DNA from: a virus
Direction: 5' to 3' (one strand)
Length of the DNA: 64,000 nt
Virus record (IMG/VR): IMGVR_UViG_3300032116_000025
The stretch's first letter is position 1. Each line of letters starts with the position of its first letter. Below, one piece after another: positions 1,321 through 54,051 of this stretch. The notes beneath the pieces were generated by a model that was given only the letters and a program-made list of their open reading frames with translations, was not told the DNA's origin and searched no databases. A program made the translations under genes and the position numbers.

Positions 1321-1365
1321 GCCTGCTCCCCGCCGCAAGGCGGGTCGAGCGGGCTTTCTCTTGCC
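1321..1365 (+). terminator. bulged hairpin terminator + TTTCTCTTGCC
   Basis: GCCTGCTC-CCCGCC-GCAA-GGCGGG-[TC]-GAGCGGGC followed by a pyrimidine tract. Confidence 0.75.
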
Positions 1366-1384
1366 TAACTTTGCCCGTAAAGTC

Positions 1385-1392
1385 CCTATAAG
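1385..1392 (+). promoter_or_regulatory. CCTATAAG putative phage promoter core
   Basis: Recurrent octamer upstream of the 1437 gene. Confidence 0.7.
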
Positions 1393-1436
1393 CGTTTGAA
1401 GCGCGGACCTATTGACGCCGCGATTCAGGAGATAAC

Positions 1437-1787: not shown

Positions 1788-1790
1788 GTC

Positions 1791-1838
1791 AGTTACCCCA
1801 CTCCCCTACCAAGGGGTCGAGTGGGGTAACTTTTTGCC
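1791..1838 (+). terminator. bulged hairpin terminator + TTTTTGCC
   Basis: AGTTACCCCACTC-CCCT-ACCA-AGGG-[GTC]-GAGTGGGGTAACT followed by a T tract. Confidence 0.8.
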
Positions 1839-2451: not shown

Positions 2452-5400
2452 TTAGAATGCCCGACCAGCGCCTTGGTACGCGGGTGCAGCAAGGGGGCGG
2501 GAGGTCTGAGACTCTTCCTGCGCCATCTGCGTCTGGTTTAGCATATGGCCTGCTCCTACCGCCAGCCCGCCAAGGCCCAACGCGGCAGCTCCACCGGCAA
2601 TCGGGATGGCATTACGGCGCAGGAACCCAGGCTGTTTGGGTGCTTCCGGAGCGGCTGGCTGGCCCGCGGGTGCTACCGGTGTAGCCGCTCCGGTAGCTGC
2701 TACGGGCGTAGCGGCGGGAGATGCAGCGGCTGGGGCAGGAGGAGGAGGCGGCGCCACTCCCGCTGACTGCTGCGGTGGTGGCGGCGGGGGCGGAGGTGGG
2801 GGCGGCGCAGCACGCTGCGGAGGTGGTGGGGGTGGAGGCACTGGGCGCGCTGCCGCTGCGGGCGGTGGCGGTGGAGCAACAACGCGCCCCGTCTGGTTCT
2901 CAAGAGAGAAGCCAGGGGGCAGGGCAGGCCCGGGGGTTACGGGCAGCTGAGCCCGCGCGGGCGCGGAACTCGCGCCGGAGGCACGAACTAGCTCAGACAA
3001 CTCTGGAACGCGACCAGCCTCTTGCGTAACCGCTTTTGACTCTAGGTTAGCCAGCAGCGACTCAACCTGTGGGGACATTTGTCCCGGATCAGGCTTGGGT
3101 AGTGACGACGGCGCTGGTCGAGGTGCTACTTGGGTTGCCTCGTTCCCAATAGCCTCTCGACGCATGCGATCTTGGGAGGCTCGTAGAGCTTCTGCCCTTC
3201 GAGTTTCCTTTGCCGCCGCGTCAGCTTGACCCTTTGCTAGAACCTCTGCTTGCGAAGGTTCAGCGGGGCGCGCAGCAGGCGTGGCGGGGGGCTTAGCTGC
3301 GGGCTTAGCGGCAGGCGCAGCAGCGGGCGTAGCAGCGGGCGTAGTGGCTGGAGCAGTCGCAGGCGAAGTCTTTGGCGCAGGCGGTGCTTTTTCCCAGCCT
3401 AGCGCTTGGCGAGCCTTGCGGACCTCAGCGGCTTCTGCCGCTCCGCGCCCAGAGACTTCCTTCTTAACTTCGTCGACAAGCTTCTTGTCTTCCGCCCTGG
3501 CTGCGGCTCGCGCTGCCTCAGCCTTATCCAGCTTGGCTTTGTACTCCGGGCTGCCCGTTACGGGGTTTTGCTCACGCTGTTTTGACCTTTGGGCGGCCTC
3601 AGACTCCCGCTGTGTCTTACGCGCTGCCGCGGCCTGTTCTTCCCGCTCAATGGCAGCACGCTCACGCGCCTGACGCTCAGCGGCCCTGGTTCCCGGCTTT
3701 ACGTCTGAGCGCCCAGCAAACTGTTGGTCTAGCTGGTCCTTACGCTGCTGAATGCGCGCCTGATCCTTTGCTGTCGCAGCCTCAAGCTTGTTGCGGTCTG
3801 CTGCGTCGGCCATTTCCCGCTTAAGTGTATCCCGCGCGGTGTCCTGAGCCTTTAGGCGAGCTACCTCTTTAGAGGCTGCCTCCGGACCCCGGACCTTTGC
3901 TCCCGCAAGCCCTTCTCCGCTCCTAAGCGCCTGTACCTCGGCGCCTAGTTGCTTAGCTTTTCCTGAAACAAAGTTTCGACCCTGACGGCCAAAGTGAATA
4001 GCATCGTCGGCAAACTCCCGCCCTACGTCTTTCAGGGCTCCCAGCGCCTGCCGGGCAATACCTTTGGCGATCTTTTCCTGCTCCTCATTGGTCATGTACT
4101 CCCAGTCGGGGTACATGATCTGAGCAACCTTGACCGCCTGCCGCATGGCCAAGGCAGCGTTTGCCTTCTTTTCCTTTGACTTGTACTTCATGTAGTCGTG
4201 GACGGCGTCAATCGCCTCCGACGCACGGTCAATCTTGCTCTCAACCCAAGGCTCCGCGTTGTCCCGAACGGATACAGCACCAGAGAGCCGCTTAGACTGA
4301 TCCGCAAGCCGCTTGAGGTTGCTGACCATCATGTAGCCGGGCGGGTCATTGTGCTCGGAAAGCACGGACTTTCTGGAGGCTGTCTTTGGGGCTTCCGCCG
4401 GAACATAGTCTTCCGGCTTTTTACCGCCGGGAAGAAGCCGGTCGATCCCGCGAGATACGGGCTTGATAACGCCCGGAGCAACAAGGGCTAGTCCGCCGAT
4501 CTCCTGAAGATGGTAATCCTTCATCTTCTTGCCAGCGCCGTGGATTGCGGCTCCCATGGCCTTAATCCTTGGATCGCTGGCGTGCTCCATCTTTTCGCCA
4601 GCAAACTGAGCGATAGACGGGGCCGCTAAAGCAGCAATACCAACGTCGTCTAGCCGATCAGCAATAAACTCGGCGCGCTCGCTGTCCTTAGCCGCCTTGA
4701 TGTTATCGCCTTGGATCGAGGCTGCAAAATCGGTAACCGGCGGGATGTCGTCCCCGACGCCATTCCGCTCACCGTTACGCTTTGCAGGCTGAACCAGCGA
4801 GGCAATCTTCAAAGAACCAAAATCGATGTCTTGACCGCTGCTGATGCGCGCAAGGTTCAGCTCAATGAAGGCGTCGAGTTGTGTTCCACCGACTTTGGCG
4901 GCCTGCCCCGAGCCGTATGCCGAGTTCTGCTTAGTCATGTACATTCCGGCTCCAACGCCGGCAAGACCAACGGTTGGGGTTACCCACCACGGCAGCTTAA
5001 ACCCACCGCCCTCAGCTGCCGCAGCGGCTGGTGCGCCTGCGGGCGCGGCCGCTGCTGGAGCTGCGCCTGCGGCAGCGGCTGGGGGAGGCGGAGGTACCGC
5101 TGCGCCCGGAACCGGGGGAGGAGCAGCAGCCGGCACTCGGCTGCCTCCTTCGTACTTGACGTGGCCTCCGGACATAAGCCGGTCGCCTGCCCGGGTGGCT
5201 TTTACGTCTTGAGTGATGTTAGACAGCTGCTGTGGCGTCAGGCTTGTGCCCTGTAGGCCGGCCTTGAACGACGCTGCGCTGCGGGCAGATCCTGCGGCTA
5301 GTGCGTCACCAGCAGCATGGGCTACGTTCTTAGTGCCCTGAACTGCCCGGCCAGCAAGGTTAGCCGTGCCTTGAACAGCCTGCTGACCTGCGCGCACTAC

Positions 5401-6885
5401 CCGTCCGAACATGTTTGCTGCAACGTTGGCAGCCTTTTCCTGCTCTTCAGGCGACATCCGGTCCCAGTCTGGGAACACCGCACGCGCCAGCTTTACGGCG
5501 TCACCGGCGTAGCGTGGAGTAACCGGCGTGTACGCAAGGCTGGCCTTCTTGTCCCGGTTTGCCAGGTACAAGCCCGTTCCGCCTGCTGCGAGTAAGCCTC
5601 CTCCTACTACAAGCGGCGCATAACCGCCGGATCCGGTTGCCGGGGCAGCAGCTGGAGTTGCGGCCGGGGCAGCCGCTGGTACCGCCGCTGCACCTTCGTT
5701 TTGAACGGCTTGCCGAACGACGTTTTCCCGCTGCGTCCTGCTGGCCTCTGCCGCTGCGTTAAGATTCTGCTCAAACGCCTTTTCAGCTGCACGCGCCTGA
5801 TTCTTAGCCTCTGCATCGATAACTGCGGCAGCTTGGGGAAAGCGACCGCTAGGGTCTGTTGCTGAGGGTCGAAGCGGGGGTGTGTAGCCCGTAGTAGGCG
5901 CAGGTTGAACCGGTGTCGCGGCAGGAGACACGCCCCGGGTTGGCGCGGGGATTGGTGCATGCCCTTGTCCGGCTAGATCTCGCCCACGAGCACGGTAGCC
6001 CTGCTGAATCGCGTCGTCTAGGTCCTTGCCACCACGAAGCCCCCCAACCACGTGCTCTATCGGGGCGCCGCGGCGGGTGCTCTGCGACAGCTCTCCTACA
6101 GCTTTGCGAGCGCCGGATACCCCACCCACTACGCGGCTGTTTGCGGCTTCGCGTGCCTGCTGGGCAATTGCGTTTGCAATGTCTGGCGTAACTTCGTGGC
6201 CAGCGGTGGCTAGGCGCTTGGTTAGCCCAGCGGCAACCCGCTTCTCAATATCGGCCGCAGAAATGGCCAGCTTGGTTACTTCTGCTTTCTTTGATCGCAT
6301 TGTAGGCTTGCCCTTCTCGGCCGGAGCACGCTCAGGGAGGTTCTTCATGTTGGGAGTCTCGTCTGCCCATTCCTTCGCCTTCTCTTTTGAGAAGCCAGGA
6401 ATATGGCCGCCGAATGCGGCGCGCTGCTGACGCTTGGACGTGAAGGGCATCTTATTCTCCGAAATCTTTTGGCCGTGGTTCTTCTTATCGAGAACCTTAC
6501 CCTTAAACTCTTCAACGCCCATCTCCCTCATCGAGCCGAAGAAGCGGGGGTCATTATAGTGAGCTAGGTAAGCCGCCTTAGCCGCTTTGGCGTCCTTAAA
6601 TCCGAGCATCACCTTCTGCTCGTCAAACCGCCTGAAGTCTGGCTTCTTCATCTGATCGACGATGAACACGGAGCTGGAGTCGGTATCCGGGCCGACGTAG
6701 ACATCGACGTGGTCGCCGTCAGTGCCCTCTGTGCGGCGGAAGTAGCCGTAGTCGTACTTCATCACCGTGGTGCCAGATTCTCCGCTGTGGGGATCCTTCC
6801 AATGGCGCGACGACCCTCGCGGGTTTTCGATAGAAATATCGAACCCGTAGAGCTTTACCCTCTTTTTTATCGGATGTGCGGCCAT
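2452..6885 (-). CDS. large polyvalent/virion cargo protein with N-terminal inorganic-pyrophosphatase-like (InPase) domain, Pro/Ala-rich linkers and Gly-rich hydrophobic helices
   Basis: ISIENPRGSxR...YGY...GTDGDHVDVYVG...DQ...FDEQKVMLGF is the InPase signature of polyvalent proteins; internal repeats; many KxA sites. Confidence 0.8.
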   Translation of the reverse strand: MAAHPIKKRVKLYGFDISIENPRGSSRHWKDPHSGESGTTVMKYDYGYFRRTEGTDGDHVDVYVGPDTDSSSVFIVDQMKKPDFRRFDEQKVMLGFKDAKAAKAAYLAHYNDPRFFGSMREMGVEEFKGKVLDKKNHGQKISENKMPFTSKRQQRAAFGGHIPGFSKEKAKEWADETPNMKNLPERAPAEKGKPTMRSKKAEVTKLAISAADIEKRVAAGLTKRLATAGHEVTPDIANAIAQQAREAANSRVVGGVSGARKAVGELSQSTRRGAPIEHVVGGLRGGKDLDDAIQQGYRARGRDLAGQGHAPIPAPTRGVSPAATPVQPAPTTGYTPPLRPSATDPSGRFPQAAAVIDAEAKNQARAAEKAFEQNLNAAAEASRTQRENVVRQAVQNEGAAAVPAAAPAATPAAAPATGSGGYAPLVVGGGLLAAGGTGLYLANRDKKASLAYTPVTPRYAGDAVKLARAVFPDWDRMSPEEQEKAANVAANMFGRVVRAGQQAVQGTANLAGRAVQGTKNVAHAAGDALAAGSARSAASFKAGLQGTSLTPQQLSNITQDVKATRAGDRLMSGGHVKYEGGSRVPAAAPPPVPGAAVPPPPPAAAAGAAPAAAAPAGAPAAAAAEGGGFKLPWWVTPTVGLAGVGAGMYMTKQNSAYGSGQAAKVGGTQLDAFIELNLARISSGQDIDFGSLKIASLVQPAKRNGERNGVGDDIPPVTDFAASIQGDNIKAAKDSERAEFIADRLDDVGIAALAAPSIAQFAGEKMEHASDPRIKAMGAAIHGAGKKMKDYHLQEIGGLALVAPGVIKPVSRGIDRLLPGGKKPEDYVPAEAPKTASRKSVLSEHNDPPGYMMVSNLKRLADQSKRLSGAVSVRDNAEPWVESKIDRASEAIDAVHDYMKYKSKEKKANAALAMRQAVKVAQIMYPDWEYMTNEEQEKIAKGIARQALGALKDVGREFADDAIHFGRQGRNFVSGKAKQLGAEVQALRSGEGLAGAKVRGPEAASKEVARLKAQDTARDTLKREMADAADRNKLEAATAKDQARIQQRKDQLDQQFAGRSDVKPGTRAAERQARERAAIEREEQAAAARKTQRESEAAQRSKQREQNPVTGSPEYKAKLDKAEAARAAARAEDKKLVDEVKKEVSGRGAAEAAEVRKARQALGWEKAPPAPKTSPATAPATTPAATPAAAPAAKPAAKPPATPAARPAEPSQAEVLAKGQADAAAKETRRAEALRASQDRMRREAIGNEATQVAPRPAPSSLPKPDPGQMSPQVESLLANLESKAVTQEAGRVPELSELVRASGASSAPARAQLPVTPGPALPPGFSLENQTGRVVAPPPPPAAAARPVPPPPPPPQRAAPPPPPPPPPPPQQSAGVAPPPPPAPAAASPAATPVAATGAATPVAPAGQPAAPEAPKQPGFLRRNAIPIAGGAAALGLGGLAVGAGHMLNQTQMAQEESQTSRPLAAPAYQGAGRAF

Positions 6886-6966: not shown

Positions 6967-7629
6967 ATGAGCACCAATGTCTCGCTCAACAGCGGTAACC
7001 CCGCCGGCGCGGAGCCGAACTCCGCGATTGCCTGCATTGCGGGCATTTTCGTGCAGGTCTACGGTATTGCCGCCTCGAAGTTCGAGACGGCGTGTGTCGG
7101 AACGCGGGTAGCGTTCCCGATGCAACAATTCGTCCAGGAGTTTGTCGCCCAGGCGGTGAACTCCTGGAAGGGCCCCGATCGGGCGCCCGGGCAGCACTTC
7201 ATCCAGCTGAAGCTGAACGAGTACATGCTGGGGAAGTTCCTTAGCGGGGTCGGGCGCCGGACGACAGACCCAAAGGAATACTTCCCCGCTCTGTGGAGGG
7301 GAGAAGTGGTTCTGCTCGGCCGGCGAAAGCTGGCCGAACCCACCACTGGAGTGGCAGTGATCGTGTACACCCGCGAGGCGTACCTCAACGATCCACAGAT
7401 CGACGAGGCGGGAAGGCGGTGGCTGGACCCGAGGACGACCCACGTCCTTGTGGACGTCCTCGCATTCTCGAACACGATCGGCTCCCCGCAGCTTAGCCCG
7501 CACCGCTTCGTGCGGAACATGGCTGGCGGCAACAATACCCAGCTCACGGCAAGCGCCGACGAGCTTCGAGCAGAGGCTCAACTCGTGGCCGCGTACGATG
7601 CGAGCTACGTCACGGTCGGCGACGACTGA
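6967..7629 (+). CDS. hypothetical protein
   Basis: Start moved from 6709, which overlaps the minus gene, to the ATG at 6967 just after the promoter motif; ends at a terminator. Confidence 0.75.
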   Translation: MSTNVSLNSGNPAGAEPNSAIACIAGIFVQVYGIAASKFETACVGTRVAFPMQQFVQEFVAQAVNSWKGPDRAPGQHFIQLKLNEYMLGKFLSGVGRRTTDPKEYFPALWRGEVVLLGRRKLAEPTTGVAVIVYTREAYLNDPQIDEAGRRWLDPRTTHVLVDVLAFSNTIGSPQLSPHRFVRNMAGGNNTQLTASADELRAEAQLVAAYDASYVTVGDD

Positions 7630-7635: not shown

Positions 7636-7681
7636 CGCCCGCTCCCCGGCTTCGGCCGGGTTGAGCGGGCGTTCTCTTGCC
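7636..7681 (+). terminator. bulged hairpin terminator + TTCTCTTGCC
   Basis: CGCCCGCTC-CCCGGC-TTCG-GCCGGG-[TT]-GAGCGGGCG. Confidence 0.8.
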
Positions 7682-7700
7682 TAGTAATACCGCGTTTTCC

Positions 7701-7708
7701 CCTATAAG
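7701..7708 (+). promoter_or_regulatory. CCTATAAG putative phage promoter core
   Basis: Upstream of SD GGAGG and the ATG at 7724. Confidence 0.7.
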
Positions 7709-7723: not shown

Positions 7724-7864
7724 ATGCGACGAAACCGACGATTGGCTGACCTGGCGCGTGAGCGTCAGGCAGCGGAAGTTCGTGAGGAGGTCAAGCAAAT
7801 CGCGCTTGGCCTCCTCGCGCTCGTAGGGCTGCTGGCCACATCGTGGCTAGCGGCGTTTATCTGA
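7724..7864 (+). CDS. small membrane protein (46 aa, not in ORF track)
   Basis: MRRNRRLADLARERQAAEVREEVKQIALGLLALVGLLATSWLAAFI; has its own promoter motif, SD and terminator. Confidence 0.75.
   Translation: MRRNRRLADLARERQAAEVREEVKQIALGLLALVGLLATSWLAAFI
7741..7771 (+). repeat. 31-bp exact direct repeat, copy 1 (copy 2 at 8868-8898)
   Basis: ATTGGCTGACCTGGCGCGTGAGCGTCAGGCA occurs twice. Confidence 0.9.
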
Positions 7865-7902
7865 AAGATGGGGAGCCTAACAGGCTCCCCATCTTTTTTG
7901 CT
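7864..7902 (+). terminator. perfect hairpin terminator + TTTTGCT
   Basis: AAAGATGGGGAGCCT-AAC-AGGCTCCCCATCTTT. Confidence 0.85.
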
Positions 7903-8230: not shown

Positions 8231-8419
8231 GTGAACGTCACACGCACCGTCTGGTACATCAGCTCAGACGAAACGGGAAAGCTGGGCCCGTTTTCTACTC
8301 AAGAGCAAGCCTACAGCGCGATCCGCAAAGATCTTTACGCAAGCACAGATCTAGCAAAGCGCCCATCTAACGTAGTCTTGTGGCCCGAGTACGTATCGAG
8401 CGCAGACCCAAAGGGATGA
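8231..8419 (+). CDS. hypothetical protein
   Basis: 62 aa, GTG start after SD AGGAG. Confidence 0.65.
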   Translation: MNVTRTVWYISSDETGKLGPFSTQEQAYSAIRKDLYASTDLAKRPSNVVLWPEYVSSADPKG

Positions 8420-8436
8420 AATAGCGCTCCTTTTTG

Positions 8437-8444
8437 CCTATCAG
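8437..8444 (+). promoter_or_regulatory. CCTATCAG variant promoter core
   Basis: One-base variant of the recurrent octamer, upstream of the 8465 gene. Confidence 0.6.
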
Positions 8445-8464: not shown

Positions 8465-8764
8465 ATGTGCATCCTAAACGATAGCGAGAAGGCCGCGGTA
8501 TCCGCCGCGGTCACCACCATCCTGGAGAAGGGTCTGCCCTTCACGGGTCAGTCGGTCACGCACGAGTTGCGTGACCGGGGCGTCAACCTCCCTCACAGGG
8601 AGATTTCCTCGTACACGCGGGAGATCTTCAACGGCGGAAAGATGCCTGGGTGGGCTTCCACCCAGGTCGTCCCGGGCCTTGGCCCGGTGATGTACTTCCC
8701 GGTCCCGCCGCGTAGCGCGGCGGGGATGGCGGCGGCGAAGCTTCGAAAGAAGCTGGTCCCGTGA
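8465..8764 (+). CDS. hypothetical protein
   Basis: 99 aa, SD AAGGA, GTGA overlap with the next gene. Confidence 0.75.
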   Translation: MCILNDSEKAAVSAAVTTILEKGLPFTGQSVTHELRDRGVNLPHREISSYTREIFNGGKMPGWASTQVVPGLGPVMYFPVPPRSAAGMAAAKLRKKLVP

Positions 8765-9498
8765 AGGACGGTAAGCGGCGGAGGGCGAAAGCCCTCCGCC
8801 TGCCGGACGTCCCTGCTTTCCAGCAGGCGGCGTCCATCCCGGTTAAGGGCCAAAAGCCCCTAACCCAATTGGCTGACCTGGCGCGTGAGCGTCAGGCAAA
8901 GGGGCAGGAGGACATGCGTGAGGTGCGCAGGCACCTTGAGCGCTCCTGCAAAGAGTCGGGACGGCAGAACACCTACGGCGGGGTGTTCTACAGCTACACA
9001 GTGTTGAAGCCGAAAGAGCTTCGGCACAAGGACAACACGCGGACCCTGTGGCACGGTACCGCCCTCGGCAATCTCACGAACATCCTAATACACGGATTTA
9101 GGCCTTCGTACGGAGGGCTTATGGGTCCGGGCGTCTACTTCGGTGGACGCCAGAAAGCCGAGGCATACTCAAGGGCCCCCCTCGGAGCGCTGCTCCGATG
9201 CGAGGTGGCCCTGGGCCGAACAGCGGATGCCGTTCCCTCGTGGGAGGACGCGCGCCCGCCGTACGACACCCTACACGGCGTGCCCGGCCAGACGCGCACG
9301 TATGGATCGTCCACCCTTCTTAACGAAGAATGGGCGGTCCTTGACCCTGCCCGAATCTCCATTCACGAAATTCGGGTGTTCACTGCAAATCGAGGCGAGT
9401 GTGTCCGATGCGGACGCCTTGTCAGCGATGAGCACCTTCAGTCGAGGTGGTCACCGCGCCACAAAGACTTCATCAGGCTTTGTGGCCACTGTCTGTGA
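8761..9498 (+). CDS. PARP-like (H-Y-E clade) ADP-ribosyltransferase with C-terminal CxxC..CxxC finger
   Basis: LWHGT, GLMGPGVYF, KAEAYS, LLRCEVALG, NEEWAV motifs; CVRC...CGHC at the C-terminus. Confidence 0.8.
   Translation: MKDGKRRRAKALRLPDVPAFQQAASIPVKGQKPLTQLADLARERQAKGQEDMREVRRHLERSCKESGRQNTYGGVFYSYTVLKPKELRHKDNTRTLWHGTALGNLTNILIHGFRPSYGGLMGPGVYFGGRQKAEAYSRAPLGALLRCEVALGRTADAVPSWEDARPPYDTLHGVPGQTRTYGSSTLLNEEWAVLDPARISIHEIRVFTANRGECVRCGRLVSDEHLQSRWSPRHKDFIRLCGHCL
8868..8898 (+). repeat. 31-bp exact direct repeat, copy 2
   Basis: Identical to 7741-7771; encodes LADLARERQA in both genes. Confidence 0.9.
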
Positions 9499-9503
9499 GT
9501 AAT

Positions 9504-9544
9504 GCGGCCTCCCCATAACGGGTTGAGGCCGCTTTACTTTTGCT
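9504..9544 (+). terminator. bulged hairpin terminator + TTTTGCT
   Basis: GCGGCCTC-CCC-ATAAC-GGG-[TT]-GAGGCCGC. Confidence 0.75.
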
Positions 9545-9565
9545 CCCAAAATATGCGCCGTTTCT

Positions 9566-9573
9566 CGTATAAG
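9566..9573 (+). promoter_or_regulatory. CGTATAAG variant promoter core ahead of the tRNA array
   Basis: Variant of the octamer, ending 21 nt before tRNA-Thr. Confidence 0.55.
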
Positions 9574-11623: not shown

Positions 11624-11694
11624 TCGGGGTTCGTCTAAGGGCAGGACATCGGCCTTTGAAGCCGCGAATGATGGTTCGATTCCATCACCCCGAA
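11624..11694 (+). tRNA. tRNA-Gln(TTG)
   Basis: Acceptor TCGGGGT/ACCCCGA; anticodon arm CGGC-CT-TTG-AA-GCCG. Confidence 0.92.
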
Positions 11695-11708: not shown

Positions 11709-11748
11709 AACGCGCACTAGCCCCTCCCTAGTGCGCGTTTCTTTTGCC
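11709..11748 (+). terminator. hairpin terminator of the tRNA operon + TTTTGCC
   Basis: AACGCGCACTAG-CCCCTCC-CTAGTGCGCGTT. Confidence 0.85.
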
Positions 11749-11768
11749 CAAAATTTAAGGGGTTTCCG

Positions 11769-11776
11769 CCTATAAG
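11769..11776 (+). promoter_or_regulatory. CCTATAAG putative phage promoter core
   Basis: Upstream of SD AGGAGG and the ATG at 11792. Confidence 0.7.
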
Positions 11777-11791: not shown

Positions 11792-11986
11792 ATGCACCAC
11801 AACGAGTTCAAGTGCGATACCTGTGGGTCCGAGATGAGCCTCGTTTTGTACGGGGCAGGCAACTGCCCCGGCTGCCCGGGAGATATGTCATGCGCGCTCG
11901 AGGCGCGCTGCGACCGGTGCAACCCGCCGCCACCGCCGAAGCCGCGGTACGTGCCGCCGCCGGAGCCCCCCACCGATTACTGGTGA
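11792..11986 (+). CDS. small Cys-rich (Zn-binding) protein with Pro-rich tail
   Basis: CDTC, CPGC, CDRC; strong SD; has its own promoter motif and terminator. Confidence 0.75.
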   Translation: MHHNEFKCDTCGSEMSLVLYGAGNCPGCPGDMSCALEARCDRCNPPPPPKPRYVPPPEPPTDYW

Positions 11987-11995
11987 GGGGCCGCG

Positions 11996-12038
11996 CGCCC
12001 TGCTCCCCGAAAGGGTTGAGCGGGGCGTTTCTTTTGCC
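11996..12038 (+). terminator. bulged hairpin terminator + TTTTGCC
   Basis: CGCCCTGCTC-CCC-GAAA-GGG-[TT]-GAGCGGGGCG. Confidence 0.8.
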
Positions 12039-12045
12039 AATACGG

Positions 12046-12053
12046 CCTATAAG
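12046..12053 (+). promoter_or_regulatory. CCTATAAG putative phage promoter core
   Basis: Upstream of SD AAGGAGG and the GTG at 12072. Confidence 0.7.
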
Positions 12054-12071: not shown

Positions 12072-12254
12072 GTGTCTGCCCTAAAGAACTACTACAAAGC
12101 GTGTACCCGCGCGGCAATCGCAGTCGAAAACAATGACAAGGCTGAAGAGCTGGCGGCGCTGGAGCTGGTAAAAACTACGTGGAGTGAGTTACAGAAGGAG
12201 GATCCCAGACTCGCGAAGTTCCTCACGCAAACTGGGATTGACCCGCCAAAGTAA
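12072..12254 (+). CDS. hypothetical protein
   Basis: 60 aa, strong SD. Confidence 0.7.
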   Translation: MSALKNYYKACTRAAIAVENNDKAEELAALELVKTTWSELQKEDPRLAKFLTQTGIDPPK

Positions 12255-12255
12255 A

Positions 12256-12295
12256 ATAGGGCTGGACACATCGTGTCCAGCCCTATCTTTTTGCC
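12256..12295. terminator. hairpin terminator between convergent genes (+ TTTTTGCC)
   Basis: ATAGGGCTGGACAC-ATC-GTGTCCAGCCCTAT. Confidence 0.85.
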
Positions 12296-24621: not shown

Positions 24622-24656
24622 GTGGCGCTCCTTGTTTTTTGCTTATATCAGCACAA

Positions 24657-24686
24657 AGGGGCACCGGCACAGTAGCCGGTGCCCCT
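24657..24686 (-). terminator. terminator after the major capsid gene
   Basis: Inverted repeat AGGGGCACCGGC/GCCGGTGCCCCT. Confidence 0.75.
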
Positions 24687-36765: not shown

Positions 36766-36803
36766 GAGAGGGGGCAGCAGTTGCTGCCCCCTCTCTTTTT
36801 GCC
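36766..36803. terminator. hairpin terminator between convergent genes (+ TTTTTGCC)
   Basis: Inverted repeat GAGAGGGGGCAGCA/TGCTGCCCCCTCTC. Confidence 0.85.
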
Positions 36804-46300: not shown

Positions 46301-49300
46301 GCTCAACCAGTTCGATGTGAGACCACCGCTGACCTGACGGACCGCCTGTAATGTTGCGGTCGAAGAGACCGCCCTTCACCGGCTCGTCTCCCTCTGCCCA
46401 GCGCCCCTTTGACGCCTTTGTCAGCGCTCCGGCACTAAGCTTTCGGGTCTCTTCGTCCGTCCGCGGAATCATCCGGATAGACGTGCCGTTCTTGTGCAGG
46501 TCTACTCCAAGACCTTTCAGCATGTTCTCAAACTTGTTGTATACGAAGGGCACCTTGGGCGGAGGGAGCACCTCCCCGTTGATGAGCGCTCCCCAGACCT
46601 CGCGGGCTTGGTCCTTATCGGCCTTGAGCGTCTGCATCTCAGCAAGGTTGTGGTGCAGCCCAGCAGCAAGCGCTCCGTAGATACCAAGAGATCCAAGAGA
46701 CTGAGCGCCGGTGTGGCCACCGCCGCGCGGGATCTTTGTATCGTTGTCGTAGTGGATCATCGGTGCGTCAAACTGAGTAAACGCCCGACCTCCGCTACGC
46801 ACGTGGGTCTTCTTGTCGATCTGGTGCTCTAACTGGAACACGTAGTGCGGCCCGGTAGTAACGTCACCTAGCTTGCGACCGGTCTTTGGATCAAACAAAG
46901 ACTCTGTCTCTTTAAGCCCGTGCCTGTTCAAATCGTCTTGAACCTTCTTGAGGTAGTCTACTCCCCCCTGAAAGTTCTTTACCGCGTAGGGTTGGCCGGT
47001 TTTTTCTGCGATCTTGCCAGCCGCAGTTTCTAGGATTTGGCCCGGGTTCATTCGGCCCGGCACTGAGACCGGGTTAATGAGCATTTCTACGGGCTTGCCC
47101 TGGCCGTCGTGGGGCATGTCCTTGTCGGGAAGAACCGACGTGACGATCCCCTTCGCGCTGTGGCGCGTGGAGATCTTGGAGCCTACCTGTGCGGGCTCCC
47201 GGGTCTTTACATGGACGATGATGTTTCGCCCAGACCGCGCAACGTCAATAACCTCGCCTGGGTAGTCCGAATCCCAGGTCAACGACGTATTCATGAACTC
47301 TTGGCGAAGCTTTCCACCAAGCTTGAGATTCGTGTTCTCGTCAATGCTGCTAAGCTGAGATCGCCGCGACATTGCTAGGACAAGCGGATCGCCTGGGTGA
47401 ACAATTGCACCCTTCTTTACGACGCCGTCGTCGCCAATCTTCGCCATGCGCTGCGACCCGTATACGTCCTTGTTGTAGATAAACTTGTTCTTATCGATGA
47501 TGGTTTCGTCTGAGACCATCATTACGGGTTTGTTGAGGTGCACCGACCGAAGCTTCTCAGCCGCACTCTCAGAGATGACGATGCCATCCTCGTGGTTGGA
47601 CCCGTTTGCTAGGTACGCCACGCGGAGGTTTGTCCCTAGCGCCAGTTGTCCGTTACGAGTGAAGTTGTTGTCGGCCAAGAGCTGACCCGACTTTACGCGG
47701 TCACCTTCTTTTACCAAGGGCTCGCTGTGAAGCATTCCCTTGTCGTGGTTGGTGGGGTAGTGATCGTACAGGTGTACAGAATGCTGTTTGCCAGCTGAGT
47801 CCTGTACGATGATCTCTTTAGGCCTAACCGCTTTTACAACACCGTCTATCGGAGCTTTGTGGGCGAGAAACCCACTGCCTACGAGTTTCTCAAAGGTCCT
47901 ACCAGCGCCAATCTCTACCTGAACCTTGGGTGGCTCCCGGCCCTCGATGCTGATTGCCTGCGCCATGTGTCGCGCAGACATCGTAGTCCGACCAGCCGCG
48001 TCGTTTTGCATGAACGGGACTAGGTTTGTCTCCGTAGCAAAAACCTGCGATGAGCTTGGCATCACGTAATGAGCAGACGACCATGGGAGATCATCCCTGA
48101 GTTCGCCCTTTACGTCAGACATGCGGATAGACTTCTCTCGCGGAGAAGGCTTACCGCCTTTCCAAACAACCTGGTCCGGAAGAACTACGTTGGATGTAGA
48201 CGCAATCGTAGCGTCCACATCTTCCAGCTTTCCGGTCCTTAGGTTGTACAAGCTAACGTATGGCTTTCGATCCTTAATGCCGACGCCAAACGCCAGGTGT
48301 GTGTTTACCCCGGGGTTAGACTCTGGGGTAAACACGGGGTCCAGGATGCCCAGGTGGCTTGGGTCAATCGCTGTGTTGGACTTTGTGATGCTGTGGGGGT
48401 TTGTAATTCCACCAGGACCCTGAATCGTAACCATACTCCTGTCAGAGAGCATGGAGATCGGGTTCGTCTGCTTGCCGTTGGAGGCAAGTGACGTCGTGAA
48501 CACGCTGTAGAACGGTCGCCGGATAAGATCTGGCGGCACTACGTCACGGATAACATCCGCATCGCCGGTAATAAGCTTCTTTTGGATCGACGGCTTATTT
48601 AGGGCTACAGAGACGCGGGACTTGATGTCGTCGCTTGCGCCAGCAAGCCGCTCGGCAAAGTGGTCCTTTGCTGACCACAGCTCTTTGTAACGAAGGCTAT
48701 CGATGGGATCCGGCTCACGCCGACCACCGGAGACGTCTACCAGCTTCTTAGACGCGGCAAACAGTACGTCTGGCCCTACGCTGGCGGAGTCTAAGCCGAG
48801 GTTGGCCTTGACCACCGCGGGGTCCACCTTGGTCTGCTCAAAGAGGGCTTTGACGGCAAGCTTGGGGTCGTCTTTTTCCGAAAGAGCGCGCCCAGACCAT
48901 GCCTCATGGAAGGAGCGGAGGTGCTTGTCGATGCCGCCCTTGTCCTTTACGGACTTTTGCTTGGTGACCTCAAACGCCGTGTCTCCCCAAGCAGAACGCA
49001 TCTCACTGTCTGAGATGCCGTAGGCGTGCAGCACAGAGTAAAGGGGCACCTTCCGCCCCCCGACCTTGAGGTGCAGGTAGCCCTCTTGCCCCTGCTGGAT
49101 GTCAAACGCAGCCCCCTTAGCTAACTGAAACTGCGCTTCGTACTCCCCGGGCTTCTCCGTACTCTTTACGTAAACACCCGGGCGGAGTCGCCACTGCTTT
49201 GTGATGAACTTTTCCTGCCCGCCAATGATGTAGCTGTAGTGCCTGGTCAGCTTGGGGATAGAAGCTAGCTGAATCTTCTTCTCTACCAGGCTTTTTCCGG

Positions 49301-49538
49301 TTTCTACGTCGACCACGGACACGCGTCCGGTGACTGGAGCTGCCCAGGACTTTCCCGTCATGCGGGCGTCGTGCTGCCCCTTGATGTCTCCGACGCCCTT
49401 GTCGTCGGAGACGGATACGTCCGACACACGAACCTCAAACCGGCCGGTTTTGTCCTTGATCGGAAACGTACTTCCAATCTGCTCGACCAGCTTGGTCTTC
49501 AGTTCCTCAAACTCGGCCTGCGGTTCGATAGTTAGCAC
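43335..49538 (-). CDS. single-chain fused beta-beta' DNA-directed RNA polymerase (phage, divergent)
   Basis: Beta motifs: LVPFMQND, GSKISTRHSAKG, NPVSVPGRMNPGQILE, GAQSLG. These are followed in frame by beta' motifs: GLFD, LPVLPP, GFFQDKLIGKKQDY, LLKRDPVLH, NGDIDGD, GARRG..GY, RSPLKC, GERAAQIMLKQTH. Confidence 0.95.
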   Translation of the reverse strand: MLTIEPQAEFEELKTKLVEQIGSTFPIKDKTGRFEVRVSDVSVSDDKGVGDIKGQHDARMTGKSWAAPVTGRVSVVDVETGKSLVEKKIQLASIPKLTRHYSYIIGGQEKFITKQWRLRPGVYVKSTEKPGEYEAQFQLAKGAAFDIQQGQEGYLHLKVGGRKVPLYSVLHAYGISDSEMRSAWGDTAFEVTKQKSVKDKGGIDKHLRSFHEAWSGRALSEKDDPKLAVKALFEQTKVDPAVVKANLGLDSASVGPDVLFAASKKLVDVSGGRREPDPIDSLRYKELWSAKDHFAERLAGASDDIKSRVSVALNKPSIQKKLITGDADVIRDVVPPDLIRRPFYSVFTTSLASNGKQTNPISMLSDRSMVTIQGPGGITNPHSITKSNTAIDPSHLGILDPVFTPESNPGVNTHLAFGVGIKDRKPYVSLYNLRTGKLEDVDATIASTSNVVLPDQVVWKGGKPSPREKSIRMSDVKGELRDDLPWSSAHYVMPSSSQVFATETNLVPFMQNDAAGRTTMSARHMAQAISIEGREPPKVQVEIGAGRTFEKLVGSGFLAHKAPIDGVVKAVRPKEIIVQDSAGKQHSVHLYDHYPTNHDKGMLHSEPLVKEGDRVKSGQLLADNNFTRNGQLALGTNLRVAYLANGSNHEDGIVISESAAEKLRSVHLNKPVMMVSDETIIDKNKFIYNKDVYGSQRMAKIGDDGVVKKGAIVHPGDPLVLAMSRRSQLSSIDENTNLKLGGKLRQEFMNTSLTWDSDYPGEVIDVARSGRNIIVHVKTREPAQVGSKISTRHSAKGIVTSVLPDKDMPHDGQGKPVEMLINPVSVPGRMNPGQILETAAGKIAEKTGQPYAVKNFQGGVDYLKKVQDDLNRHGLKETESLFDPKTGRKLGDVTTGPHYVFQLEHQIDKKTHVRSGGRAFTQFDAPMIHYDNDTKIPRGGGHTGAQSLGSLGIYGALAAGLHHNLAEMQTLKADKDQAREVWGALINGEVLPPPKVPFVYNKFENMLKGLGVDLHKNGTSIRMIPRTDEETRKLSAGALTKASKGRWAEGDEPVKGGLFDRNITGGPSGQRWSHIELVEPMPNPVFSKAIAHTLGIKETDIPDIIEGKKKLPDGGYGGKAFRESLAKLDLDKEIVRTREALKDPKLKGTALDKVNFKLHALVGLKEVGKNPADAWTLKALPVLPPIYRQQGMLPDGTVKVNPLNSLYRRLAMTNESLEKGSKHVPYNATLDTRRGLYTAMTELFGTAAKGKKGLDLDVRGTKEDPNKKLPGIIHMISGDQPKDGFFQDKLIGKKQDYTSRATIVVDPTLSVEEIAVPKKIAVELMRPMVSRRLQALGYAPGQAETMISHKHETALKALEKEVETRPILLKRDPVLHQYGIIGQNIKLTNEAAIKVNPLVLPPLNGDIDGDTVALMVPLSPHAVAEAKRVLPSQRTLSDSSGDVLYAPSNESALALYRMSIPRGDKGKTFKTKEEAETAFRQNKLDLNEAITISGVGKTTLGRARIAQVVPEKYRHEVLTKLDRPFDRKFQSTVLSEVAKQNPHIFVPTVDGLSRLGFQMAYESGHTVSLKDLEPLREARGQIINKTQKEVEGLTGPSREATTEKWLAATRQLHDVYNQHYKGNPTHISDMASSGIKAKHEQFQGLVMAPMLVEDHLGRPSRVPLTRSFAEGVDVGGYFLSAAGARRGVIQKTDSVREPGYMSKLLVQANIDQPITGVDCGTASGIALPLTDKDIVDRRLASDTKLGDRVHRAGTVVTPTILSEADKARVGQLVVRSPLKCRMPAGVCSHCMGIHPSGKEYSHGENAGIIAAHALGERAAQIMLKQTHGQGIVSTKGQTVAVFGDVQRMFNAAKPSLMDAAVAHAASPVTKVERSREGVWAIHTEGSKRPLETRQKPLQHVVAGYKPHRGEVLTHGDPNVNDLMTTQGIDATQQHMVNKIGDIYAAEGVLRRHVELAVRSSTGVARVTDPGDHSHYLRGDFAQRTVLDELNRTVLQGKKPIEYTSVITPVGSVPERIQPDWMGKLQGENLSKTIRRAAQHLETANVRGSHPIPRLAYGQFIASNPGGR

Positions 49539-49822: not shown

Positions 49823-50178
49823 AGGCGAAAGCAAGCAAGGTAGAGCTAGTTACCGCGCCCAGATTTCTAGCAGCCAACTACGTAGAAAACGCACATACGC
49901 CAATCTGTAGTTACTGTCAACAGAGCATTGATCTTCTGGACGACGCCCTCTGCGTTATTCCCGGGCAGTGGATGGCAGACAAGTCGGAGGGCGGCGCGAT
50001 GTTCGTGCTTGAGCCGGACGTTCAGGTTCAGATCATCCAGCTAACAAATGGACAGATGGCCCTTCGGGTGGACTCCCACACCGCCAACCACGTGCACGCA
50101 GAGTGTCAGAAGCAGCTAGTCGCTGAGATGTTCGACTCCCCCTGGGGGATGGAAATCGAAGAGGAGGACTACCGATGA
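49819..50178 (+). CDS. hypothetical protein with CxxC...HxxC Zn site
   Basis: CSYC and HAEC; ATGA overlaps at both ends. Confidence 0.75.
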   Translation: MKAKASKVELVTAPRFLAANYVENAHTPICSYCQQSIDLLDDALCVIPGQWMADKSEGGAMFVLEPDVQVQIIQLTNGQMALRVDSHTANHVHAECQKQLVAEMFDSPWGMEIEEEDYR

Positions 50179-51365
50179 GCAGCGGTGTTGAAAGGCGCGG
50201 GCTGACCTACGGGCAGGCGCAAATCCGAGTACACGAAAATCTCCGCATCCAGGCGAAGCTTTCTACGCAGAACGACAGTGAGGTTCTAAACACCCCCTGC
50301 CTCATGGCAGGGGTTGGCGGGGGAAAGACCTCCATGGCCCGCAGCGAAGCTCAGCGGTTTGAGCTTCCCCTTCGTGCCATCAATAACGGGGAGAACAGCG
50401 ACCCAACGGACATGAGCGGTGTTCCGGTTCCTGCGCTCATCCGAGATCTGATGGAGAGGGGAACCAACTCCGAAAAGTCAGGAGCCCAGGATGCCTACAT
50501 GGAGTGGGTTCTTAACCGGTACGCGCTAGAGGCCTGCCAAGAAGGTGTATTCCTTTTCCTCGATGACATCGACAAGGCGCCCCCGCCGATTCAAGGGGCA
50601 CTCCTTGGAATTATTGGCAACCGCAAGTTCCGGGATCGAAGTATCCACCCCCACACGCTAATCATGGCTGCGGGCAACAGAACTTCAGACGACATCTACG
50701 CCCATCAGATCTCAGAGAGCCTAAAGACGCGGCTCACAATCATCGAGATGGAGCCAGATGTTCTGTCGTTCTGCGACTACGGTGTGCGTACGGGCAGAAT
50801 CCACGAGATCGTTTGCGGGTTCTTACAGTACCGGCCGGAGTACCTACACAAGTGGATTGAGGGTGTAAATCGCTTCCCCACCCCGCGTGGGTGGCGAGAA
50901 GTGTCCGTCCACTTCTCGGAAAGCCCCGACCCGTTTATGGACGGCTTGCACAACGGGTCGAAAGACAACTGGAAACAGATCGTATCTGAGAAGTGCGGAG
51001 AACCGGTCAGCAAAGACTTCTGGGCATGGTTCAAGATCATCCGCAAGGTTGACGTTCAGAAGGTCCTTCGTTCTGGGTCCATCGACGCAGTTCAAGGCGA
51101 CGACGGGAAAACCACTGACAAGCGAATGGCAGAGTTTGCGGCGGTGTTCGCGATTGCCCAAGAGCTAAACAACAACGGAGTGAAGAAGGAATACTCCGGG
51201 TTAAACACCTTGTTCGACAACGCCAACAAGGCCGGCGTATCTAAGGAAATGCGGGTGGCGCTAGCTGTTCAGCTAAAGCGAGACGTACGTACTCAGATCG
51301 CCAAGATGTTTACGAAGGCGGCAGATCAAATGATGGAAGTTCTCATTCCCACGGAGTCTGCTTGA
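50175..51365 (+). CDS. MoxR-like AAA+ ATPase
   Basis: Walker A GVGGGKT, DMSGVP, Walker B FLFLDD, AAGNR, L.TR, FPTPRGW. Confidence 0.85.
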   Translation: MSSGVERRGLTYGQAQIRVHENLRIQAKLSTQNDSEVLNTPCLMAGVGGGKTSMARSEAQRFELPLRAINNGENSDPTDMSGVPVPALIRDLMERGTNSEKSGAQDAYMEWVLNRYALEACQEGVFLFLDDIDKAPPPIQGALLGIIGNRKFRDRSIHPHTLIMAAGNRTSDDIYAHQISESLKTRLTIIEMEPDVLSFCDYGVRTGRIHEIVCGFLQYRPEYLHKWIEGVNRFPTPRGWREVSVHFSESPDPFMDGLHNGSKDNWKQIVSEKCGEPVSKDFWAWFKIIRKVDVQKVLRSGSIDAVQGDDGKTTDKRMAEFAAVFAIAQELNNNGVKKEYSGLNTLFDNANKAGVSKEMRVALAVQLKRDVRTQIAKMFTKAADQMMEVLIPTESA

Positions 51366-52609
51366 TTAATGAAGCGTCGTTTACGAGTAAGGAGGCTCTC
51401 CGGCTTGTAAACGACGCTGTTTTTGATTTGATTCTACGGGCGGAGCTGATGGGGCTGTCCCTCATGGGAGAGGCCATCAAGATTCTACAAGACGACTCGA
51501 TCAAAACAATGTGTACCGATGGGAGAACCATCCGAGTTTCGTCTGAGTGGCTGTCCAAGAACGGACTACGCGGCAACGTTTTTGACCTACTGCATGAGTG
51601 GCTTCACTGCTTCGGCAACCACGTCGCGCGGCGTGGGAGCAGAGATCCCAGCCTGTGGAACATTGCCTGCGACATCTGGGTAGTAAAGACAGCCTCAGAA
51701 ATACTAAGCCGCCCAAATGACGCTTGGGACCCTCCTAAAGATGGGGTTCAGCCTCCCAAGTGGGCCGAGGGGCTCTCCGTAGAGGAGATCTACGACAAGC
51801 TAAAGTCTGAGCAGGACCAGCGAAAGTCATCGGGCCTTACGTCACCTGGACCGCTTAGGTCAGCTTCTCAAAGTTCGTCTAGTGATCCTAGTAGCGAAAT
51901 CCAGTCCGGTAAGGACTTCGACTACAAGAGCGCGGAAGAAGCCACGGAGCAAGAAGAGCAAGACTTCGTAGATCAGTTTACAAACGAGCTTGCCCAAGCT
52001 CAGCTGATTATGGAGATGTCCAGTGGCCAAAGCGTAGAGGATCGCTACGGGTCAAAGGTGTCATCTCGTATTACAGAGGTGTTAAGGGGCACCGTTCCTT
52101 GGTCACGGCTGCTTCGTGGGGACTTGATCGATAAGCTGGAGAAGCAGCACGCTACCTGGAGCCCTCCGCGCCGGAAATATTACCCGCTGATTCCGCTGCC
52201 TTCGTACCAAAGCACAAAGACTCGCAAGCTGGTCTTGTCGATCGACGTGTCGGCGTCCGTTGGCGAGAAGATGATGAAGGCGTTTATTTCAAACACCATG
52301 CCGGCGGCGCTGCGGGCTGATGAAACCATCGTCATTACTTTCGATCAGGTAATCCGCGAGGTGGTTCACACGCGAAGACCCAAAGACATCTTGAATCAAG
52401 TCAAGTTCTTACAGGGGGCGCATAGCTACACGGATGTCCGCCCCGTGTTTGACATGATCAGAGAAATCAACCCGTCTGCCGTAGCGATTCTTACTGACGC
52501 GTATCTATCCTACCCAGACGATCCGTACCGAGATGCCATCTTTGTGGTTCCACGGGGGGCAGGAACTCCCCCATGGGGAAAGGTGTACGTAATGGAGGAG
52601 TCTTGGTGA
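51362..52609 (+). CDS. DUF2201-like metallopeptidase + VWA domain protein
   Basis: TMCTDG, LLHEWLH, WNIACD, VPW..LL, IDVSASV (MIDAS-like), ILTDAY. Confidence 0.85.
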   Translation: MINEASFTSKEALRLVNDAVFDLILRAELMGLSLMGEAIKILQDDSIKTMCTDGRTIRVSSEWLSKNGLRGNVFDLLHEWLHCFGNHVARRGSRDPSLWNIACDIWVVKTASEILSRPNDAWDPPKDGVQPPKWAEGLSVEEIYDKLKSEQDQRKSSGLTSPGPLRSASQSSSSDPSSEIQSGKDFDYKSAEEATEQEEQDFVDQFTNELAQAQLIMEMSSGQSVEDRYGSKVSSRITEVLRGTVPWSRLLRGDLIDKLEKQHATWSPPRRKYYPLIPLPSYQSTKTRKLVLSIDVSASVGEKMMKAFISNTMPAALRADETIVITFDQVIREVVHTRRPKDILNQVKFLQGAHSYTDVRPVFDMIREINPSAVAILTDAYLSYPDDPYRDAIFVVPRGAGTPPWGKVYVMEESW

Positions 52610-53970
52610 CGGACGCGCTTCTACGAGACAGCTGCTTGGCGTTGCTAGCTCAACCCGGCGGCACCGCCCAGTTTCAGAAGATCGGACTCCTAGCGTGCGG
52701 TAGCGAGTGGGCGCACGTTATCTCGTCTGTTTCAGCTACGAAGACCTGCGAAGTAGAGTCTTACGCAGTTTCAGTAGCCCACGGCGTAAAGCCAAGCGAA
52801 CTGTACGGGCGCTTAAAGCCACGGCCCCTGGTCAACGTGCTTGAAACGAACCGCTATTACAGGGCGGCTTACCGAAGCGCATTTATCTCGCACCCACTTC
52901 ATCTGAGCCTTGCGTTTAGTGAACTACTAAACGACAGGGAAGAGGGAGACTGGCTTCTACAGGAGTACCAAGAGGCTGGCGACGCTGACAAGTACCGGGG
53001 TAGCGACTTTCTCTCAGTAAGCTGGATTCCTCCCTACACGCCCGAAAGTACCGGCAGAACCCCGTTCGCAAAGCCAAAGTGCATAGACAACATCTCGTTC
53101 ATCGCATGGTTTGATAAAAACTCGGTGAGCGAACTCGTTTCTAACGTAGACTCCTCGTTTATCGCAGAAGCGGCCAACGTTAGCGTTCACCTAAGTAGGC
53201 CGCTTGACCTGTCGATACCAGCATGGGCTGCGCTAAGCTCCCATTGGGGTCACGCAAGACCCGATTACAACTGGGTAACCGACCTCCTACGCCTTGTGCG
53301 CCCTCACAAGGCTCACGCCTTGCTGGATAACGCCGTCGGTGTTCGGCGCTCGTTTGGCATTACCCGCGACGATGCAACGCCGCGCCAGATGACACATGGC
53401 ATGCGGTCAATAGCGGGAATGACAGAAGAGGCTAGGGAGGCCATGTCTAGGCTTTACGGAAGGGCTCCGACCATTAGCGAGATCAAGGCTGTGCGGGGCG
53501 GCGGTATCGTAGATCTCCTCTACTACATGCCGTGGGTACTCCTAGAAAACGTACTCAAGGAGCACTCGTCCGACCTTCGCGCGCTTACCCTGCCCCACCT
53601 ACAGCACCTAACTGGCAGCAAGCGCTACCTGCTACAAGACCACGATCGTAGGGCAAAACTACGCGCCTACGCAGGGAGAGAAGCAGGAGATCGTATAACC
53701 GTAACGCCGAACACCACAACCAGCGATTGGTCAAAGGTGTTTACCGGGCTGGTAAACCAGTACCAAGCGTCCCGCTCCCTACGAAACAGGCTGCTTGAGG
53801 CGTGCCAAGACCCTGTGGTAGCCGCAGTCGCGTTGATGGCTAAGTTTGAGATACTAGACAAGAATCTTGTAGAGCGTGTTCTGCGCCACCACAGGAACTT
53901 TCGTCGGATCTCAGAAGTAGCAAACCAAGCTACCGAGGTCATTACAGATCCGGATAATCTAGTTACGTAA
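52606..53970 (+). CDS. hypothetical protein
   Basis: GTG at 52606 follows SD GGAG and overlaps the previous stop. Confidence 0.75.
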   Translation: MTDALLRDSCLALLAQPGGTAQFQKIGLLACGSEWAHVISSVSATKTCEVESYAVSVAHGVKPSELYGRLKPRPLVNVLETNRYYRAAYRSAFISHPLHLSLAFSELLNDREEGDWLLQEYQEAGDADKYRGSDFLSVSWIPPYTPESTGRTPFAKPKCIDNISFIAWFDKNSVSELVSNVDSSFIAEAANVSVHLSRPLDLSIPAWAALSSHWGHARPDYNWVTDLLRLVRPHKAHALLDNAVGVRRSFGITRDDATPRQMTHGMRSIAGMTEEAREAMSRLYGRAPTISEIKAVRGGGIVDLLYYMPWVLLENVLKEHSSDLRALTLPHLQHLTGSKRYLLQDHDRRAKLRAYAGREAGDRITVTPNTTTSDWSKVFTGLVNQYQASRSLRNRLLEACQDPVVAAVALMAKFEILDKNLVERVLRHHRNFRRISEVANQATEVITDPDNLVT

Positions 53971-54051
53971 AATAAGGGGGCGCGTGCGCCCCCTTATTGC
54001 CGGATAACTAAGTTACCTAGAATAAGGGGCGTGGCCCCTTATTCTTTTGCC
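53950..54051. repeat. imperfect 50-bp tandem duplication containing two terminator hairpins
   Basis: CCGGATAA..AGTTAC.TA.AATAAGGGG-loop-CCCCTTATT occurs at 53950-53998 and 54000-54043, followed by TTTTGCC. Confidence 0.8.

Follow-up and report, generated by a model that had tools for sequence, protein, structure and literature searches.

Termination sites have been mapped on ~10,000 templates in a preprint of May 2026 (10.64898/2026.05.29.728758), whose HUB model gives strong sites the form GC(U)7RU (R, purine), with G-C at positions -11/-10 and purine-U at -2/-1 marking the two edges of the transcription bubble. Mutations at these edges abolished termination even though the hairpin and the U tract were intact. 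The requirement was for a purine at -2 and for U at -1, where C was less frequent but carried some information, and G-C at -2/-1 was about as good as A-U in one terminator (rplT). The terminator motif resembles the elemental pause consensus, which the same preprint writes as GS(N)7RY (10.64898/2026.05.29.728758).

The element considered here is a TTGC(C/T) tail (TTGCY; Y, pyrimidine) that follows the T-rich tract of hairpin terminators in the IMG/VR virus record IMGVR_UViG_3300032116_000025. The window, which is the whole stretch of 64,000 nucleotides (nt) that was analysed, has 58% G+C and is part of an uncultured freshwater phage of ~160 kb. The tail is most economically read as acting in pausing or release where the U tract ends, and it is likely that it contributes to termination. 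More specifically, we consider it somewhat better than an even bet (about 0.55) that TTGCY combines the end of the U tract with the downstream bubble-edge pause dinucleotide (R at -2, Y at -1) in a clade-specific G-C form, followed by a pyrimidine at +1.

Bases after the T run are known to modulate termination in other systems, such as T7Te versus T3Te with E. coli RNA polymerase (RNAP) and the T run flanked by G+C that is recognised by RNA polymerase III. However, these are efficiency effects or hairpin-free signals, and not a near-invariant motif of a terminator set. The elemental pause is said to have the full form G-11 G-10 ... T-3 G-2 Y-1 G+1, reportedly from work by Larson and by Vvedenskaya and their colleagues in 2014, and the TTGC of the phage fits its T-3 G-2 Y-1. 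A further close match is the T-phi terminator of phage T7 (NC_001604, 24160-24212), which consists of a hairpin, T6, and GCT, with termination annotated at the G (position 24210); this tail is identical to that of the window, although its reader in T7 is a single-subunit enzyme, whereas the phage studied here encodes a multisubunit one.

Association of the tail with hairpins across the clade

The first-pass annotation of the window had listed 12 plus-strand sites at which a pyrimidine tract ends in TTGCC or TTGCT. When the 12 sites were read directly, each proved to be a hairpin that leads into a T-rich pyrimidine tract and then the tail, which is TTGCC at 10 sites and TTGCT at 7902 and 9544. 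A site beyond those listed (53972-54001), in tandem with that at 54051, has the same arrangement, and thus 13 of the 13 plus-strand terminators of the window end in the tail, with G-C past the tract at every one. All 13 hairpins lie directly past gene or transfer RNA (tRNA) ends. Upon refolding, 11 of the 12 listed hairpins (12 of the 13) had energies of -18 to -31 kcal/mol; the exception was the weak hairpin at 8398-8429 (-9.3 kcal/mol). The U-rich tract directly 3' of the hairpin agrees with the HUB definition, which gives it a length of ~7 nt.

A close relative of the window phage was not found at the DNA level in a cultured-phage collection, and IMG/VR contained 15 related contigs, with RNAPs that were 54-65% identical to that of the window. 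Three near-complete relatives with a CheckV rating of complete (RNAP 55-65% identical) formed the main comparison set, namely, G001 (172 kb, 66% G+C), G002 (177 kb, 60% G+C), and G003 (195 kb, 62% G+C). Terminator candidates were collected using gene calls and compact single hairpins that are followed by at least five T in 10 nt. The anchor was placed at the first purine to follow a tract in which at least four of 6 nt are T, a rule that has no bias to G over A nor to the next base. In these intergenic sets, which retain false positives, G-C-Y stood at the anchor in 11 of 20 sites in the window (background of all such tracts in the window, 0.131; binomial p=1e-5), 9 of 20 in G001 (0.153; p=0.0016), 13 of 36 in G002 (0.130; p=0.0004), and 11 of 26 in G003 (0.133; p=0.0003). 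On the plus strand of the window, the pipeline placed G-C at the anchor in 10 of 12 intergenic sites. G-C-Y was not enriched at hairpin-plus-T look-alikes within the coding regions of any of the four genomes (window, 1/21), and bare TTTTGCC occurred 15 times across the whole window, a mild excess over the 8.4 expected. The signal is therefore an association with hairpins and not a matter of word frequency. Among strong compact terminators in the relatives, ~60-75% carried TTTGCY. The genome of G001 (172 kb) also contained just 193 maximal runs of at least three T, both strands summed, which is several-fold below the composition expectation, and a large share of these runs was positioned after hairpins.

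In the clade formed by the window phage and the three relatives, G-C stood directly past the tract in 48 of 95 sites. A position matrix built from these 48 sites, in which G and C are fixed by selection and C is phased at -1, showed T at 96% at -4 and -3 and at 73-81% at -6/-5. Upstream of these positions, C and T are mixed in the tract, which is often partly paired within the stem base. The base after C (+1) was a pyrimidine in 44 of the 48 sites (92%; p=1e-6 against 0.6), and conservation downstream of +1 was not found in the matrix.

The first-pass annotation had confined the tail to the plus strand. This limit holds in the window, where TTGCY is absent from the five to eight minus-strand terminators (five of them clear), but not in the relatives, in which either strand can bear the tail (G-C at 3/9 and 8/11 sites on the two strands of G001, 7/22 and 7/14 in G002, and 7/12 and 5/14 in G003); "plus strand" is thus an accident of the window. 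Three of the minus-strand tails of the window are TTTT-AC, one is TTTTGAG, and one is TTTGTGCT (TTTGT-GCT). The last belongs to the terminator (24645-24686) after the major capsid gene (24720-25832), and its G002 orthologue (69902) ends in TCTTT-GCT. The TTTT-AC tails (2386-2402, 12240-12255, and 53960-53971, all on the minus strand) are purine-C steps with A replacing G, which indicates that, in the window phage, the C presumed to lie at -1 is found more generally than the preceding G. The first of these is part of a minus-strand terminator (2386-2445; hairpin of -33 kcal/mol, tail TTTACTTTTT-ACT, and hence R-C rather than G-C) after the minus-strand gene at 2452-6885. This gene encodes a 1477-aa protein with an N-terminal inorganic pyrophosphatase domain (PF18823, E=6.5e-39), in which other domains were not recognised. 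Bidirectional hairpins in G002 had G-C-Y on one side only (81322/81355 and 58312/58358).

Orthologous terminators were found at two positions. The terminator that converges with the terminase gene (window 36803) has orthologues in seven relatives that keep the tail, with stems that share no sequence. Their tails are TTTTTGCT in L003, TTTTGCC in L006, L009, and L014, TTTGCC in L008 and L012, and TTGCT in L013, and an eighth relative, L010, has TTTCGCT. Similarly, the terminator at 54051, which is located 4.6 kb upstream of the RNAP gene, has a G001 orthologue (85147) that ends in TTTGCC. Because orthologous terminators keep the tail on replaced stems, selection acts on the tail itself. An explanation by shared descent, in which a single mobile or duplicated cassette gave rise to the terminators and the tail was inherited without function, would fit the five to six window hairpins that form one bulged family (CTCCCC 5' arm, GGGTYGAG 3' arm, and a 2-nt pyrimidine bulge; 1319-1356, 1791-1831, 2345-2382, 7636-7671, 9497-9539, and 11995-12028). 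However, the remaining seven hairpins have unrelated stems, and the tail therefore stands on at least six unrelated stems and is not merely part of a copied cassette. Together with the complete replacement of stems at orthologous sites and the lack of conservation past +1, this makes common descent a scarcely credible explanation.

Bacterial controls and possible hosts

The identical pipeline was run on nine bacterial lineages from six phyla or classes. In E. coli K-12 (150 kb), G-C-Y occurred at 5 of 89 intergenic sites, at a background of 0.10, and enrichment was not found in Hymenobacter, Pseudomonas, Sphingomonadaceae, Deinococcaceae, two betaproteobacteria, and Leptolyngbya (80-100 kb each), nor in a Propionibacteriaceae genome (500 kb). 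Purine-T followed the tract in 58% of cases in E. coli (background 23%), 41% in Pseudomonas (22%), 48% in Deinococcaceae (23%), and 52% in one betaproteobacterium (19%). The four clade genomes were enriched in purine-C (74, 58, 50, and 52% vs. ~33%) and not in purine-T; purine-C was present at 54 of 95 sites in the clade and at 57 of 211 in the bacteria (Fisher p=8e-7). The earlier claim that bacterial terminators lack strongly conserved bases past the U tract is outdated, since R-U is required there (10.64898/2026.05.29.728758) and R-T is enriched in our own controls.

Two cultured phages, Vibrio phage D181 and Salmonella phage Arash (OQ632216.1), are distant relatives with RNAPs that are ~30% identical (Arash, 31%). 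D181 had tails of the bacterial type (R-T, 49%). In Arash, TTTTT-AG(C) tails were present at 11 of 32 sites (background 0.12), compared with 4 of 50 in E. coli, which was used as a proxy for Salmonella terminators (p=0.004). Judging from Arash, phages with their own RNAP may habitually use tails that differ from the host type; a literature search did not find transcription data on this phage.

These comparisons bear on the possibility of host mimicry, in which the terminators of the host itself end in a U tract and GCY, the host RNAP reads them, and nothing is specific to a phage polymerase. The tails of D181 are host-like, terminators with the exact tail occur sporadically in many bacteria, and the bacterial controls cover nine lineages only, all of which would be compatible with mimicry. 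On the other hand, G-C-Y was enriched in none of these lineages, and the tail is associated with a phage-specific promoter class. Furthermore, the relatives share the tail even though they span 58-66% G+C, were obtained from several sampling sites, and probably infect several hosts, and Arash departs from the E. coli-type tail. Mimicry of host terminators is thus rather unlikely.

Searches for the host did not identify it. Relatives of the capsid protein were not found in 185,579 species genomes, the phage GyrB was ~45% identical to scattered Firmicutes and Propionibacteriaceae, and a structured pattern scan (AAGAGGG...CCCTCTTYTTTTGCY) returned matches in many phyla. Hymenobacter, of which nine records matched the search pattern, was rejected as a lineage with this tail habit, because its excess was due to one conserved orthologous locus that was identical in the two genomes checked, with a single match in each (G006:C2:1141649-1141681 and G007:C17:32982-33014). 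The terminator at this locus has the stem AAGAGGGGAC...GTCCCCTCTT, followed by T5 and GCC, and is probably located downstream of a conserved gene.

Individual terminators and adjoining promoters

On the plus strand of the window, after gene 946-1314, a bulged hairpin (1319-1356, -30 kcal/mol) is followed by TCTCTT and GCC at 1363-1365 (terminator 1319-1365), and a CCTATAAG promoter begins 22 nt on. The terminator after gene 1437-1787 (1791-1838) has a bulged hairpin (1791-1831), a T tract, and GCC at 1836-1838, with a promoter octamer 10 nt on. At the convergent gene end after 1894-2339, the terminator (2345-2389) comprises a hairpin at 2345-2382, TTTT, and GCC at 2387-2389, and is not followed by a promoter. 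Gene ~6975-7629 is followed by a terminator (7636-7681) with a bulged hairpin (7636-7671), TTCTCTT, and GCC at 7679-7681, and the next terminator (7863-7902) contains a hairpin at 7863-7897, T6, and GCT at 7900-7902. The weak hairpin described above overlaps the end of gene 8231-8419 and continues into CTTTTT and GCC at 8436-8438 (8398-8438), of which the CC is the start of a CCTATCAG promoter variant.

Between gene 8761-9498 and the tRNA cluster, the terminator at 9497-9544 consists of a bulged hairpin, TTTACTTTT, and GCT at 9542-9544. The terminator after tRNA-Gln (11624-11694) extends over 11709-11748, with a hairpin at 11709-11739, TCTTTT, and GCC at 11746-11748. That at 11985-12038 has a bulged hairpin with a core at ~11995-12028, TTTCTTTT, GCC at 12036-12038, and a promoter octamer 10 nt on. 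At the convergent end at 12256-12295, the hairpin (12256-12286) is followed on the plus strand by CTTTTT and GCC at 12293-12295 and is also used in the minus-strand direction, with TTTT-ACT as the tail. The terminator that converges with the minus-strand terminase gene (36804-38633) occupies 36766-36803 and includes a hairpin at 36766-36795, TTTTT, and GCC at 36801-36803. In the tandem pair, the first hairpin (53972-53997) lies directly past the stop of gene 52573-53970 and has the tail TTATT-GCC (TTATTGCC), with its G at 53999 (terminator 53972-54001), and the second, at a convergent end (54019-54051), has a hairpin at 54019-54045, TTT, and GCC at 54049-54051.

In the listed window sites, inspection did not show the tail to be complementary to the 5' flank of the hairpin, an arrangement that would extend the stem. 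The 3' arm of T7 T-phi, GGGTCTTGAGGGG, resembles the bulged GGGTYGAG hairpin family of the window; this likeness could reflect convergence on a strong terminator design, or chance. Within coding sequence, TGTTTTTGAT also follows a strong hairpin (-28 kcal/mol) at 51380-51440 on the plus strand, at the junction of genes 50175-51365 and 51362-52609; this hairpin may be an internal attenuator or fortuitous.

The tail is linked to a class of phage promoters. In a strict set of 30 terminators, a same-strand CCTATMAG octamer headed the unit in 13 of 19 cases with G-C-Y but in 2 of 11 with other tails (Fisher p=0.02). When measured from the tail G to the first base of the octamer that follows, the distances fell into three groups of 1-3, 10-12, and 21-24 nt (16 cases), approximately one helical turn apart. 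These cases are located at 1363-1392, 1836-1853, 7679-7708, 8436-8444, 9542-9572, 11746-11776, and 12036-12053 in the window, 148234, 168843, and 171776 in G001, 96552 and 128640 in G002, and 52290, 118041, 119377, and 127693 in G003. The T tract may be phased relative to the promoter in these groups, or the cassettes may just be compact in design. The groups would also suit an interpretation in which the CCTATMAG promoter has TTGCC or the T tract as an upstream element (-35-like, or a phased UP element or bend) and the link to terminators is a by-product of compact cassettes; in the relatives, moreover, the tail often abuts or overlaps the octamer, e.g., TTTGCCTATCAG. However, as the first-pass annotation had recognised, four convergent gene ends of the window (2389, 12295, 36803, and 54051) bear the tail with no promoter behind them, and this applies to their orthologues as well. 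The tail either overlaps the CCTATAAG octamer (8436) or stands 8 or 20-22 nt from its TATAAG, which bore out the earlier statement that the tail is not a -35 box. These spacings and the four promoter-less ends rule out a sigma-70 -35 box (TTGnnn, 16-19 bp from the -10 element) in particular. Furthermore, TTGCC was not found upstream of the octamer promoters at 900, 6953, and 36073, which have no preceding terminator. A role of the tail as a promoter element is therefore quite improbable.

Proposed pausing at the end of the U tract and the candidate polymerase

TTGC(C/T) would form the distal part of intrinsic terminators that are composed of a hairpin and a U tract. The G and C after the last U residues would be the last two transcribed bases (purine at -2 and pyrimidine at -1), with a pyrimidine at the +1 template position. 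The purine-pyrimidine step at the downstream bubble edge would cause RNAP to pause at the end of the U tract, and the pause would provide time for the hairpin to form and for the RNA to be released. The step takes the form R-U in B. subtilis and E. coli, whereas in the phage clade it would be almost always G-C and then Y. This clade-specific form probably matches the polymerase by which the CCTATMAG promoters are read. The terminators of the phage share the hairpin and the U-rich tract with the HUB terminators, and the tract would likewise finish in a purine-pyrimidine step. They differ in that the step is mostly G-C (A-C in a few) instead of R-U, in the conserved pyrimidine at +1, and in a reader that may be a fused beta-beta' enzyme rather than a bacterial RNAP.

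The first-pass annotation had proposed that the phage RNAP needs a defined downstream pause or release sequence. What supports this proposal is that the tail is linked to terminators, conserved in the clade, absent from the nine bacterial lineages, and tied to the phage promoter. The idea of a new kind of downstream signal did not survive, because the bacterial R-U at -2/-1 makes the phage tail a G-C variant of a known element, and its reader may be the polymerase of the phage or that of the host. The tail probably lies within the last transcribed bases.

Several observations weigh against a pause step of this kind. The minus-strand terminators of the window and ~30-40% of the strong terminators of the relatives are without G-C-Y, and the tail is hence not obligatory. 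The G-11 C-10 of the HUB model is absent from the phased matrix, in which -12 to -10 are rich in C and T and G accounts for 19-21%, compared with 45-53% in the bacterial controls, although the register may be off by 1-2 nt. The G-10 of the elemental pause is likewise lacking (G, 21% at -10, from the matrix and by eye). Placing the 3' end at C, rather than at U or G, is an assumption drawn from the sequence, on which the assignment of G-C to -2/-1 depends. The elemental pause of E. coli reportedly has G at +1, whereas the phage sites have a pyrimidine. In addition, the promoter-class association is based on 30 sites and crude gene calls, and the terminators of the host could share the tail, which would make it ordinary mimicry.

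The presumed position of the tail at the 3' end of the RNA is also compatible with an RNA element, ...UUUUGC(Y), that guards against 3' exonucleases or binds a chaperone or processing enzyme and has no function in termination. However, the conserved pyrimidine at +1 would lie beyond the end of the RNA if release occurs at C, and the tail is found after the tRNA cluster as well as after mRNAs. A termination role at the same positions also has experimental precedent (10.64898/2026.05.29.728758), and protection or processing of the RNA end is accordingly a very improbable function of the tail.

We infer that the tail acts by pausing, with the 3' end at C, and that the polymerase tuned to it is the reader of the CCTATMAG promoters, plausibly the fused beta-beta' RNAP. 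The gene for this enzyme (43335-49538, minus strand; 2067 aa, with beta and beta' domains in one chain) is the only phage-encoded RNAP found and is a candidate reader of the tail; other genes of the window include a terminase, a GyrB-like protein, and eight tRNAs. Phages with such a fused RNAP have been described as mReC by Weinheimer and Aylward (PMC7481178), who are silent on promoters and terminators. A T7-like RNAP (PF00940) was not found in five near-complete relatives (G001-G005), where the T7 positive control was recovered, nor was its domain found in the large open reading frames of the window. A T7-like enzyme that reads a T7-type class I terminator was therefore ruled out despite the identical T-phi tail, and the candidates are the host RNAP and the fused beta-beta' RNAP. 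The phage enzyme is favored by the promoter-class association, the absence of the tail from nine lineages, and the deviant tails of Arash, and we regard the chance that it, and not the host RNAP, is the relevant enzyme as evenly balanced.

In this phage clade, G-C-pyrimidine represents a natural and strongly conserved alternative to purine-U at the downstream edge, and the genomes pair this tail with a single-chain multisubunit RNAP and a private promoter motif. A deeply branching fused beta-beta' RNAP may thus possess its own punctuation, with CCTATMAG as the start, hairpin-U-tract-G-C-Y as the stop, and a pause or release preference at the bubble edge (G-2, C-1, Y+1) that differs from bacterial R-U; such a self-contained, co-evolved code is a possible but tentative interpretation. 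If the tail is tuned to the phage RNAP, terminators and transcription units could be recognised by it in a large group of uncultured phages, it would offer a test case for pause and termination specificity that evolves with the polymerase, and it would supply compact terminator parts from which an orthogonal transcription system could be built. If the host has the same tail, the hosts of these phages could instead be predicted from it.

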